A stretch of 63,714 bases of DNA, the filler included, from Licmophora abbreviata (Eukaryota): the NCBI GenBank assembly GCA_900291995.1. It is 18 parts of 18 records of this genome, joined end to end, with 100 filler letters (N's around TTAATTAATTAA, not from the genome) between each part and the next. Parts side by side here need not be neighbours in the genome. Positions count along the whole stretch, not along the records: positions 53,506 to 56,291 come from OLMU01002213.1; 17 more parts are not named here. One strand, given 5' to 3'. The notes under the pieces are model-generated. The model was not told the DNA's origin. It saw nothing but the letters and a program-made list of their open reading frames with translations, and searched no databases. The translations under genes were made by a program, and so were the position numbers. Below, in pieces: positions 25,542 through 58,422 of the stretch; position 1 is the stretch's first letter; each line of letters opens with the position of its first letter.

Positions 25542-25594
25542 ATTCTTGAAATGTTCTCCTTTTGTCTCCATACCTGTCGGAACAAGAGGTGAAC
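25542..25594 (+). promoter_or_regulatory. LexA (SOS) boxes of recA
   Basis: GAAC-AAGAGGT-GAAC at 25580-25594 (perfect alphaproteobacterial box) and ATTC-N7-GTTC at 25542-25556. Confidence 0.88.
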
Positions 25595-25645: not shown

Positions 25646-26740
25646 ATGGCAACGGCAGATCTTTTGACAATGGACAGCAAGAAGAACGCGGACAAGCAAA
25701 AGGCGCTGGAAAGCGCGCTGGCGCAGATCGAACGGCAGTTCGGCAAGGGCTCGATCATGAAAATGGGGTCGGACAACCCCGTTGCCGATATCGAGGCGAC
25801 CTCGACCGGGTCGCTGGGGCTGGATATCGCGCTTGGAATCGGCGGTCTGCCGAAAGGCCGGATCGTTGAGATCTACGGTCCGGAAAGCTCGGGCAAGACG
25901 ACGTTGACGCTGCATTGCGTGGCCGAGGAACAGAAAAAGGGTGGGGTCTGCGCCTTCGTGGATGCCGAACATGCGCTCGACCCGATCTATGCGCAGAAGC
26001 TGGGCGTGGATATCAACGAATTGCTGATCTCGCAGCCCGATACCGGCGAGCAGTCTCTGGAGATCGTGGATACCTTGGTGCGGTCCGGGGCGGTCAGCAT
26101 GATCGTCGTTGATTCTGTGGCGGCGCTGACGCCCAAATCCGAGCTTGAAGGCGATATGGGCGACAGCAATGTGGGCGTGCAGGCCCGCCTGATGAGCCAG
26201 GCGATGCGCAAGCTGACCGGGTCGATCAGCCGCAGCAAATGCACGGTGATCTTCATCAACCAGATCCGCATGAAGATCGGCGTGATGTTCGGCAGCCCGG
26301 AAACCACGACGGGCGGCAACGCGTTGAAATTCTACAGCTCCGTGCGTCTGGATATCCGCCGCATCGGCTCGATCAAGGACCGCGACGAGGTGGTCGGCAA
26401 CGCGACACGCGTGAAGGTGGTGAAGAACAAGGTGGCCCCGCCGTTCAAGCAGGTGGAATTCGACATCATGTATGGTGAAGGCATCTCGAAAACCGGAGAG
26501 CTTCTGGATCTTGGCGTCAAGGCTGGTGTGGTGGAGAAATCGGGCAGCTGGTTCAGCTATGGCGACGAGCGCATCGGTCAGGGCCGCGAGAATGCCAAGC
26601 AGTTTCTCAAGGACAACCCCAAGATCGCTTACAGTATCGAGGACAAGATCCGTGCGTCGCACGGGTTGGAATTCGATATGGCCGAGCCTGAGGGGGGCGG
26701 TCATGGCGGCCCTGAGGGCGACGATATCCTCGAGGCGTGA
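25646..26740 (+). CDS. recA: Recombinase RecA
   Basis: [34 protein letters not shown]. Confidence 0.99.
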
Positions 26741-50211: not shown

Positions 50212-54580
<4,369 letters not shown>

Positions 54581-54583
54581 GCG

Positions 54584-54611
54584 ACCTGATTTTTTGTGCG
54601 AAAAATCAGGT
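54584..54611. terminator. Inverted repeat after recG (terminator or operator)
   Basis: ACCTGATTTTT / AAAAATCAGGT 11-bp perfect stem. Confidence 0.5.
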
Positions 54612-54634
54612 GGTTGCAGAAAAAATCCGCAAAA

Positions 54635-54697
54635 GTTCGCAAATGTTCTCATAAAGTTCTTTACAGGGGCTGTGTAAAATGAGAACAAAGGGGCAAC
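54635..54697 (+). promoter_or_regulatory. LexA boxes in front of a small ORF
   Basis: GTTC-TCATAAA-GTTC (54645-54659, perfect), an extra GTTC at 54635, and GAAC-AAAGGGG-CAAC (54683-54697). Confidence 0.82.
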
Positions 54698-54722
54698 ACA
54701 CCATCAGCGAAAGGAACAGATC

Positions 54723-54845
54723 ATGTTTCGTCAGATCAAGGCCACCGCGATACGATCCTCGGACACCCTGCTGGGGGATTTTCTGGGGGCGGCGGCGCTC
54801 ATGGTCACGCTGATTGCCGGGCTCTGGTTGCCCGGTCTGTTCTAG
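54723..54845 (+). CDS. 40-aa putative SOS-inducible membrane microprotein
   Basis: MFRQIKATAIRSSDTLLGDFLGAAALMVTLIAGLWLPGLF; AAAGGA RBS; own promoter boxes and terminator. Confidence 0.75.
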   Translation: MFRQIKATAIRSSDTLLGDFLGAAALMVTLIAGLWLPGLF

Positions 54846-55001
54846 AGTTTCTGCCTGCGACGTTCCGATCCGTACCGCGCCTGTTGCATCCTTGTCCCCA
54901 AGCGGGATGTGACTGACCCCTTACCTGTCCCGAGGTCCGACAAGGGTTTCTGCCTGATCCCTTGATGCGCAAATCGGAGTTACCGGAGCCCGCTTTTCCT
55001 T

Positions 55002-55037
55002 CCGCCGCCGCTCGACCGAGCGTGCGGCGGTTTTTTT
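55002..55037 (+). terminator. Rho-independent terminator of the microprotein transcript
   Basis: CCGCCGC(C)GCTCG-AC-CGAGCGTGCGGCGG followed by T7. Confidence 0.82.
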
Positions 55038-55068
55038 ATGCGCGAAATTTTACGCGGGAAAGAGGCTG

Positions 55069-55524
55069 TCAGATGCAGGACTGGGCCGCGCGGGCCTGTT
55101 CGAGCGCTTCGACGGCGGCATCGAGGGTCAGCATGATCGAGGCGTGACGGTTCTTGTAGTCGCGCGCGGGGCTGAGCACCTCGAGCCCGTTGAAGGGGGC
55201 TGCGGGCGGAGGGCCGTCGGCCTTGAGCATGTCCTTGAGCGCGTCGCGGGTGGCGACCACCTGATCGGGGGTGCAGCCGATGATATGCGCGCCCACGACC
55301 GAAGCTGCGGCCTGTCCAAGCGCGCAGGCCTTCACCTCGGCGGCATAGTCGGTGATGGTGTTGCCATCGGTGCAGAGATCGACCGTGACGGTCGAGCCGC
55401 AAAGCGGCGCGCGTTTTTTCACGGTCGCGTCGGGGGCGTCGAGCCTTCCATGATGCGGAATATCGGCGGCCAGCTCGAGGATGCGCGCCGAATAGAGTTT
55501 GATGAGGTCGGTTTCGCCGCTCAT
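55069..55524 (-). CDS. IscU/NifU N-terminal-like Fe-S scaffold family protein
   Basis: PLCGS, ACALGQA, RHAS motifs. Confidence 0.85.
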
Positions 55525-55591
55525 GACTTTTCCTTTGCTGCGTTACCCAATAGATAGAAAACCTGACCGCAGATGCAAAAGGTTTTCGCCC

Positions 55592-55954
55592 ATGCCCTTC
55601 GATCCCGCCAGTTTGACATATGATGATCGCGGCCTCATTCCAGCGATCGCGCAGGACGCGGCCACGGGCGAGGTGCTGATGATGGCGTGGATGAACCGCG
55701 AGGCGGTGGCGCGCACGCTGGAATGCGGGCGCGTGACCTATTGGAGCCGGTCGCGGGCGGCGTTCTGGGTGAAGGGCGAAAGCTCGGGGCATGTGCAGGA
55801 GTTGGTGGAGATGCGGGTGGATTGCGACCGCGATTGCCTGCTGGTGCTGGTGCGTCAGACCGGTCCGGCCTGTCATACCAACCGGCGGAGCTGCTTCTAC
55901 ACGGCGGTGAGGGACGGCGAAGAGGTCGAGATCATGGCGCCGGAAGAGGGCTGA
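55592..55954 (+). CDS. hisI: Phosphoribosyl-AMP cyclohydrolase
   Basis: YWSRSR, KGESSG, DCDRD, ACHT.RRSCF. Confidence 0.97.
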
Positions 55955-56291: not shown

Positions 56292-56391
56292 NNNNNNNNN
56301 NNNNNNNNNNNNNNNNNNNNNNNNNNNNNNNNNNNTTAATTAATTAANNNNNNNNNNNNNNNNNNNNNNNNNNNNNNNNNNNNNNNNNNNN

Positions 56392-58262: not shown

Positions 58263-58422
58263 NNNNNNNNNNNNNNNNNNNNNNNNNNNNNNNNNNNNNN
58301 NNNNNNTTAATTAATTAANNNNNNNNNNNNNNNNNNNNNNNNNNNNNNNNNNNNNNNNNNNNGTAAATAGATACCGTTATTGCAAGCTACTGAATTAGCT
58401 CGTTTTTATCAGGAAAGAGGGC

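Follow-up and report, generated by a model that had tools for sequence, protein, structure and literature searches.

SOS inhibitors of cell division are known in few bacterial lineages, the described examples being SulA, SidA, YneA, SosA and a few others. In Escherichia coli, the TisB/IstR-1 and DinQ/AgrB systems encode short hydrophobic LexA-controlled peptides, which insert in the inner membrane. Damage-induced small membrane inhibitors are already known, and so is an SOS RNA derived from the 3' end of an mRNA. The SidA protein of Caulobacter crescentus is a 29-residue, LexA-induced inner-membrane inhibitor that acts on FtsW/FtsI/FtsN (PMC4211646). In Klebsiella, the 3' end of a LexA-controlled mRNA gives rise to the small RNA DinR, which blocks the ribosome-binding site of ftsZ, thereby repressing ftsZ translation and causing filamentation (PMC10907235). 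Here we describe a microgene and an adjoining structured RNA located just downstream of recG, at positions 54635 to 55037 of a 63,714-nucleotide stretch made up of 18 joined parts of the Licmophora abbreviata assembly GCA_900291995.1 (hereafter the window). The unit recurs across the Rhodobacteraceae/Paracoccaceae (below, the family), a group to which abundant marine roseobacters belong, as do the laboratory models Rhodobacter, Paracoccus, Ruegeria and Dinoroseobacter. Neither an SOS division inhibitor of this family nor a published account of the peptide or of the RNA was found in the openly accessible literature. The nearest genome used for comparison was G001 (3.9 Mb, 99% complete).

Judging from the sequence and its conservation, it is very probable that the locus constitutes a real unit in which LexA-type boxes precede a peptide gene and a structured RNA. 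It would be transcribed as a single LexA-repressed (SOS) unit of approximately 340-360 nt. The following elements were assigned:

54635..54659, plus strand: operator 1, GTTC-N6-GTTC-N7-GTTC, with GTTC at 54635, 54645 and 54656
54660..54665, plus strand: -35-like TTTACA (putative role), directly abutting operator 1
54680..54697, plus strand: TGA and operator 2, GAAC-N7-CAAC (54683-54697), an inverted LexA-type box with one mismatch
54710..54715, plus strand: Shine-Dalgarno sequence AAAGGA, at a distance of 7 nt from the ATG (54723)
54723..54845, plus strand: 40-codon open reading frame (ORF), MFRQIKATAIRSSDTLLGDFLGAAALMVTLIAGLWLPGLF; the N-terminal half is polar and basic, the C-terminal half hydrophobic and uncharged
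54846..55002, plus strand: conserved structured 3' RNA consisting of a leader, the closing stem P1 and the hairpins P2 and P3
54851-54857, plus strand: conserved motif CTGCCTG in the single-stranded leader UUUCUGCCUGCGA, just after the stop codon
54892-54899, plus strand: loop of hairpin P2, UUGUCCCC
54924-54931, plus strand: linker motif, CCUGUCCC (window copy)
54950-54956, plus strand: CTGCCTG in the loop of hairpin P3, UUUCUGCCUGAU
55002..55037, plus strand: Rho-independent terminator CCGCCGCC...GCGGCGG, with a stem at approximately 55002-55030, a covarying apical part and U7 at 55031-55037

The initial annotation had described this apparently empty intergenic region as a complete transcription unit, and the elements that it listed were all real: the perfect GTTC-N7-GTTC box (54645-54659), a second GAAC-N7-CAAC box said to lie about 40 bp downstream in the layout of the recA promoter of the same window (38 bp in both cases), the AAAGGA ribosome-binding site, and a 40-codon frame with a basic N-terminus and a hydrophobic C-terminal helix, for which no characterised homologue had been recognised. 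The continuation into an RNA of approximately 190 nt had, however, been missed. The unit does possess the terminator attributed to it, yet outside the interval 54635-54845, approximately 160 nt past the stop codon.

Sequence comparison indicates that the 40-codon ORF is a genuine protein-coding gene under purifying selection. A six-frame search within the same genus retrieved it from 34 of 37 genomes (E <= 3.6e-6), and the three genomes without a significant match were 76%, 73% and 99% complete. At all 30 loci of the genus, the frame opened with ATG and ran for exactly 40 codons uninterrupted by stops, and GGAG- or AGGA-type ribosome-binding sites occupied the same place in relatives. The third codon position was the most variable (0.18/0.13/0.39 for the three positions), the median ratio of non-synonymous to synonymous substitution rates (dN/dS) was 0.225 over 411 pairs, and the corresponding polymorphism ratio (pN/pS) was 0.38 in frame versus 1.25 and 1.59 for the two alternative frames. 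A profile built from 28 sequences detected the ORF in 243 of the 301 genera of the family (one genome per genus), with one match per genome in most of them; divergent copies behind the same boxes, missed or weakly scored by the profile, were present in three more genera. In a draw across the class, for which the named families included were not established, the ORF was found in all three genomes of the family and in none of 298 genomes of other families, and no significant match was obtained in the six sister-family genomes of a draw across the order. The representative protein library yielded 275 clusters at E <= 0.001, mostly of 40 residues, and the best 150 representatives were all at least 38 residues long. 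In comparison, a word-indexed protein search gave only eight matches, all unnamed, which illustrates that regions left blank by many gene callers can harbour conserved biology. The peptide had no match in Pfam (E <= 0.1) or in NCBIfam (E <= 10), and its ESM Atlas clusters were all labelled 'hypothetical protein'. The curated libraries searched (Rfam, Pfam and NCBIfam) contain neither the peptide family nor the RNA family, nor the combination of the two in one transcript.

Contigs from the RNA libraries of three studies spanned 54680-54971, 54709-54971 and 54745-54988, and they hint weakly at a single molecule carrying both the ORF and the RNA. The shares for these contigs were small (0.07-0.16), and their uncovered parts and ends are no evidence of transcript ends or habitat. 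They differed from the window at 15 positions in the ORF and at one position in 54846-54971. This better conservation of the 3' RNA among close relatives is what would be expected if the ORF were untranslated, the open frame incidental and the whole unit a non-coding SOS RNA. Such an explanation is scarcely credible in view of the ATG and exactly 40 codons at all 30 genus loci, the third-position variability (0.39 versus 0.18 and 0.13) and dN/dS of 0.225 with no such pattern in the other frames, the invariant residues across 186 distinct sequences and the Shine-Dalgarno sequence at a proper distance.

The promoter region was compared at 59 orthologous loci, which had been collected through the peptide search and not through the promoter. 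A perfect GTTC-N7-GTTC box was present at all 59 loci and the triple GTTC at 55 of them. The second box, GAAC-N7-NAAC, was likewise found at 59/59 loci, starting 38 bp after the start of box 1 in 58 of them (54645 versus 54683 in the window) and carrying CAAC as its second half-site in 54. Box 1 started 76-110 nt upstream of the ATG and box 2 fell within that span, while the flanks of the 59 loci contained one perfect box in 140,099 nt. Searching genomes for the two-box composite gave exactly two occurrences in G001, at the microgene locus and at recA, and none for a reversed-pattern control. Among 31 genomes of different genera, the composite was present in 25, in comparison to one match for the reversed pattern in the entire set; at least 22 of the matches were microgene promoters and two were recA. 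The records retrieved with the promoter pattern were, among the matches listed, almost all from Rhodobacterales (including Roseovarius, Sulfitobacter, Ruegeria, Paracoccus, Thioclava and Gemmobacter). The peptide was encoded downstream in 78 of the 80 loci examined among these listed matches, with its match beginning 23-74 nt after the pattern in 74 of the 78, the other four having been misparsed.

The GTTC-N7-GTTC sequence is the published alphaproteobacterial LexA site (PMC3323433). The window recA promoter combines ATTC-N7-GTTC (25542-25556) with GAAC-N7-GAAC (25580-25594), again 38 bp apart. The recA start codon lies near 25671, and TTGAAA is found inside the first box. The recA gene of another genus (G090, L208) also fits the composite pattern. 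The G001 lexA promoter (L062, approximately 2200-2270) reads TTGACA-N17-TAGAAC, with GAAC-N7-GAAC-N6-AAAC overlapping the -10 element; this arrangement is the mirror image of the microgene's GTTC-N6-GTTC-N7-GTTC. The predicted LexA control of the unit is well supported in silico, since the boxes are kept at 59/59 loci, recA has the same layout and lexA of G001 carries a perfect box. The -35-like hexamer was usually TTTAC(A), with TTGACA, TTGACT or TTGCAT replacing it in some genera; the occurrence of TTGACA and TTGACT is compatible with a -35 role for TTTACA. Box 2 presumably covers the (extended) -10 element and the start region, so placed from sequence, and the two LexA-type operators would flank and overlap the core promoter, with DNA damage relieving the repression. 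Alternatively, the GTTC repeats might be the target of a different regulator, or their main role might lie in the promoter or the 5' leader, which would place the unit outside the SOS response. The CAAC half-site (54/59) and the third GTTC at N6 (55/59) do exceed the needs of a plain LexA site. We regard this as very unlikely, as the core is the exact published motif (PMC3323433), the same motif and spacing occur at recA, the same motif occurs at lexA, and the composite is essentially confined, genome-wide, to the microgene promoter and recA. An in-silico LexA survey of Dinoroseobacter shibae (PMC6473078) mentions no such gene in the portion of its text available here; its supplementary Table S3 may list it as hypothetical.

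The properties of the peptide were derived from 186 distinct 40-residue sequences. Residues D19, G22, L34 and P37 were each conserved in 99% of them, followed by L26 (95%), L30 (92%), L36 (90%), T15 (85%), R11 (84%) and K6 (75%). The net charge of residues 1-18 was +1.3, residues 21-40 contained a mean of 0.02 charged residues, and the mean hydropathy of residues 20-40 was 2.06. AlphaFold2, supplied with the alignment, returned a single helix spanning residues 2-39 with a mean predicted local distance difference test score (pLDDT) of 89.7. G22, L26, L30 and L34 form a stripe on one helix face, followed by (H/Y)-L-P, and this stripe looks like a specific helix-helix contact face. The peptide is predicted to be a tail-anchored inner-membrane helix with a cytoplasmic N-terminus and a specific partner, its insertion and topology being deduced from these features.

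With 40 residues and one predicted helix, the product has the features of a very small single-pass membrane protein of the SidA type. To our knowledge, no associated structured RNA has been described for sidA, whereas the microgene is fused to a conserved structured RNA. The microprotein family is also confined to its own family in the class draw (3/3 versus 0/298). It resembles SidA, as described in PMC4211646, in being an alphaproteobacterial, very small, single-helix inner-membrane protein (here predicted) whose gene stands behind a LexA operator, but it differs in its length of 40 residues and its conserved 19-residue N-terminal half, a distinction drawn from the description of SidA and not from an alignment. 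Its likeness to YneA (Bacillus), SosA (Staphylococcus) and DdrR (Acinetobacter) is that of lineage-specific, small, often membrane-bound, damage-induced proteins that delay septation; their sequences and architectures are unrelated to it, and in the accounts drawn on here none of them is reported with a structured RNA. YneA, SosA and DdrR are longer proteins with extracellular domains.

The initial annotation had proposed that the peptide is a LexA-boxed SOS membrane microprotein acting as a division inhibitor or a toxin. The reading as an SOS membrane microprotein is partly supported in silico by a real gene with conserved boxes. The toxin alternative fits less well. As a type I-like toxin in the manner of TisB or DinQ, the SOS-induced peptide would disturb the inner membrane, by depolarising or permeabilising it, and lead to dormancy after DNA damage. 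The 3' RNA would then act in cis to control how stable the toxin mRNA is or how well it is translated. The microprotein is, like TisB and DinQ, a short hydrophobic peptide behind LexA-type boxes, the untranslated region is long and structured, and the Shine-Dalgarno region is predicted to be mostly paired with codons 32-36 (unpaired probability 0.28-0.30). The distribution of type I toxins is typically patchy or multicopy, and their primary transcripts are translationally inert, with long structured leaders. Neither an inert transcript with a long leader nor a patchy multicopy distribution was found here. In contrast to TisB and DinQ, the microgene is single-copy, vertically inherited, strictly syntenic with recG upstream at 59/59 loci and family-wide (243/301 genera), its helix is uncharged, its leader is short, the distance from the start of box 1 to the ATG being 76-110 nt, and the search for an antitoxin RNA gave no candidate: no Rfam antitoxin or antisense family matched either strand of 54400-55200, and no conserved terminator was seen on the opposite strand. 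The pairing of the Shine-Dalgarno region is also barely above its control (unpaired probability 0.30 versus 0.40), and the partner is the ORF and not the 3' RNA. A toxin is, in our judgement, an improbable explanation of the unit.

In most of the 53 transcripts folded, the Shine-Dalgarno region (54709-54719) was predicted to pair with 54816-54830 (codons 32-36), a GGnCUCYAC stretch encoding G-L-(H/Y). Its mean unpaired probability was 0.28-0.30, and since a codon-shuffled control was little less paired (0.40), the pairing may be an effect of composition. A hok-like fold-back inhibition by the 3' RNA is not supported, because the partner lay inside the ORF in most of the 53 transcripts and the pairing was only slightly above control.

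The RNA of approximately 190 nt (54846-55037) was conserved both within the genus and across genera. Across genera, the UUUCUGCCUGCGA leader and a closing stem of long range were accompanied by two hairpins joined by the linker CUGCCUGUCCC, the first with the loop CCUGUCCC(A/C)A and the second with UGCCUC or CUGCCUG, and the terminator combined the invariant CCGCCGCC/GCGGCGG with a covarying tip. The window RNA folded with a minimum free energy of -72 kcal/mol (z -4.14). RNAalifold recovered P1, P2 and the terminator from a closer subset of 16 sequences, and the terminator alone from a broad MAFFT alignment of 57 sequences. A covariance model of 189 positions and 33 pairs matched 54845-55037 with 80.5 bits (E 5.7e-23), which was its sole match in the window. 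Full-length matches lay directly 3' of the ORF in 96 of 100 sources, and exactly one copy of the RNA was found in 120 of 145 family genomes, as opposed to none of six in the sister family. In the model-guided alignment, paired cells amounted to 94.8% versus 76.4% in shuffles, both-side changes occurred in 31 of the 33 pairs, and the covariation score was 0.388 versus 0.121 for shuffled alignments (0/500 reached it), with slid partners scoring at most 0.065. The T-run behind the terminator stem is present on the plus strand only, approximately 160 nt beyond the stop codon. A terminator-like match within the ORF (54756-54777) was at chance level (two versus 0.8 expected). Rfam returned no matches at E <= 1 on either strand of 54400-55200. 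As for DinR, the RNA stands at the 3' end of a LexA-type-boxed unit and ends in a U-tailed intrinsic terminator.

The ftsZ gene was tested as a single target candidate chosen beforehand. In the genera of the family, ftsZ has a nearly invariant ACAGGCGGA at approximately -17 to -7 in place of a GGAG-type Shine-Dalgarno sequence (loci L216-L245, 30 genera). ACAGGCGGA is complementary to CUGCCUGU, or to CCGCCUGU in some genera. In 23 of the 30 genera of the family, the 30 nt preceding the ftsZ start contained the pattern CAGGC[AG]G, in comparison to 25 of 465 control start regions. On the RNA side, C[TC]GCCTG was present in 94 of 102 RNAs, at 1.49 copies versus a background of 0.129 per 190 nt. 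The window RNA carries two copies of the heptamer (54851-54857 and 54950-54956), the first of which can form 9 bp with the G001 ftsZ site. When short-motif seeds were scored, the ftsZ start region reached a mean percentile of 0.20 both against other segments of the ftsZ locus (below 0.05 in 7 of 21 genomes) and against 300 control start regions (below 0.05 in 6 of 21). This ranking stems from the nearly invariant ACAGGCGGA, the complement of the RNA motif.

The ftsZ motif also followed the distribution of the locus. It was present in 22 of 26 locus-bearing family genomes under the strict pattern, or in 23 if the ftsZ start of G098, thought to be called too far upstream, is moved. Of the four family genomes that yielded no match to the promoter pattern or to the RNA, one had the motif, and the other three had different, mostly ordinary sites. 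None of 24 other alphaproteobacterial families had it, nearly all carrying GGAG-type sites; in that survey four loci were left unparsed and one unpublished genome was omitted. In G083 (L203, L233), AGGTGG replaces AGGCGG at ftsZ and the second hairpin loop of the RNA reads CCACCTCA (CCACCU) in place of TGCCTCA, a possible compensatory pair in one genome. Pairing between the RNA and ftsZ is regarded as a lead suggested by sequence complementarity and not as a finding. The likeness to DinR as described in PMC10907235 lies in an RNA at the 3' end of an SOS-type small-protein mRNA, with a Rho-independent terminator and complementarity to the ftsZ ribosome-binding site. The two differ in phylum branch, sequence and fold, the microgene RNA having no Rfam match, and in the use here of a short repeated motif (7-9 bp) instead of one long duplex. 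Moreover, the DinR parent gene dinI encodes a small modulator of RecA-filament stability (PMC10907235), whereas the parent here encodes a predicted membrane peptide.

Taken together, the putative unit would work as follows. DNA damage would relieve LexA repression at the two operators, and the resulting transcript would carry the ORF for the 40-residue tail-anchored inner-membrane helix, followed by the structured 3' RNA of approximately 190 nt with its U-tailed terminator and CYGCCUG(U) motifs in single-stranded positions. The peptide may act on the late membrane divisome, holding it inactive as SidA does with FtsW/FtsI/FtsN. The RNA, whole or processed, may pair with ACAGGCGGA of ftsZ and lower ftsZ translation, in the manner of Klebsiella DinR. 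The binding of LexA, the induction, the insertion into the membrane, the two targets and the phenotype are all inferred from sequence. A DNA-damage checkpoint on cell division is the preferred reading of the unit. We put the chance that the unit serves as a division checkpoint through either of the two arms at about even. The fuller proposal is more tentative and perhaps the less probable outcome, namely that the peptide acts on the membrane divisome and the RNA masks ACAGGCGGA of ftsZ, both arms working as described, with the ftsZ site and the RNA having co-evolved in the family while other alphaproteobacterial families kept GGAG sites and lack the unit.

A rather unlikely alternative, although one with some evidence in its favour, is an SOS membrane microprotein with a role outside division, directed at an enzyme, transporter, protease or respiratory complex, or at envelope events connected with the release of gene transfer agents, with the RNA acting as a stabiliser or as a small RNA with other targets. 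The conservation along one helix face and the invariance of D19 and P37 indicate a specific membrane partner but not which one, the short RNA motifs could fit many mRNAs, and LexA has been tied to the control of gene transfer agents in the family, as far as the available part of that study goes (PMC6473078). A role in division is favoured by the ftsZ element complementary to the RNA, which is present in 23/30 family genera versus 0/24 other families and goes with the locus. In addition, SulA (PF03846) was not found in G001 (99% complete), so the role of SOS division inhibitor has no known occupant there.

Several observations weigh against the division-checkpoint proposal or against parts of it. 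The window alone holds two perfect boxes versus 1.32 expected, a chance-level count that 39 of 100 shuffles reach. One-mismatch boxes in the window numbered 34 versus 39 expected from shuffles; the signal beyond chance derives from the comparison with other genomes and not from the window. A scan of the locus for a sigma-70 consensus promoter found none, the proposed -10 element (TG-n-GAACAA) is poor, and the conserved departure of box 2 (CAAC, 54/59) points to possibly another constraint or another protein. The make-up of the class draw by named family, mentioned above, tempers the apparent confinement of the peptide. The periodicity of the helix face was borderline (permutation p 0.059). The covariation counts lean towards the model because the alignment was fitted to it. 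The RNA-library contigs cannot show strand, ends or transcription, and one of them starts at 54680, upstream of the predicted start site. Regarding ftsZ, a crude test of full-length duplex folding between the RNA and the ftsZ start gave no signal (mean percentile 0.56, n=13), and the pairing extends over only 7-9 bp, a G-U pair included. By a rough estimate, a chance 7-mer complementarity between two such conserved stretches would arise about once in ten cases. G100 has the ftsZ motif, and the locus was not detected in it. Finally, the co-distribution of motif and locus may reflect shared ancestry, because the genomes are kin.

The unit is a good candidate for the SOS division brake of a major marine bacterial group. 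The microgene provides a concrete candidate, present in approximately four-fifths of the sampled genera and with a promoter architecture among the most strictly conserved in the sampled genomes. If the RNA arm holds true, it would add to DinR a second, independent instance of a 3'-end RNA through which the SOS response controls ftsZ translation, and it would exemplify an mRNA that serves as both message and regulator.

The neighbouring genes were assigned as follows:

53525..54580, plus strand: 3' part of recG, with Pfam matches to Helicase_C, RecG_dom3_C and DEAD
55069-55524, minus strand: NifU_N-like gene, converging on the terminator of the unit
55499-55954, plus strand: PRA-CH (hisI-type) gene, beyond the NifU_N-like gene

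At all 59 orthologous loci, recG was the same-strand upstream neighbour, with the ORF starting 99-623 nt after the recG match ended. Masked stretches, visible as runs of X in translation, were located at approximately 53454-53524, 56300-56345 and 58300-58320, where they interrupt recG and two other genes; recG reads as two ORFs because of such a stretch. Just past the recG stop codon, an A+T-rich inverted repeat (ACCTGATTTTT...AAAAATCAGGT) occupies 54584-54611. It may mark the end of the recG transcript, and no obvious conservation of it was seen in the upstream sequences of relatives. On the downstream side, the converging NifU-like gene was kept at 49 of the 59 loci.

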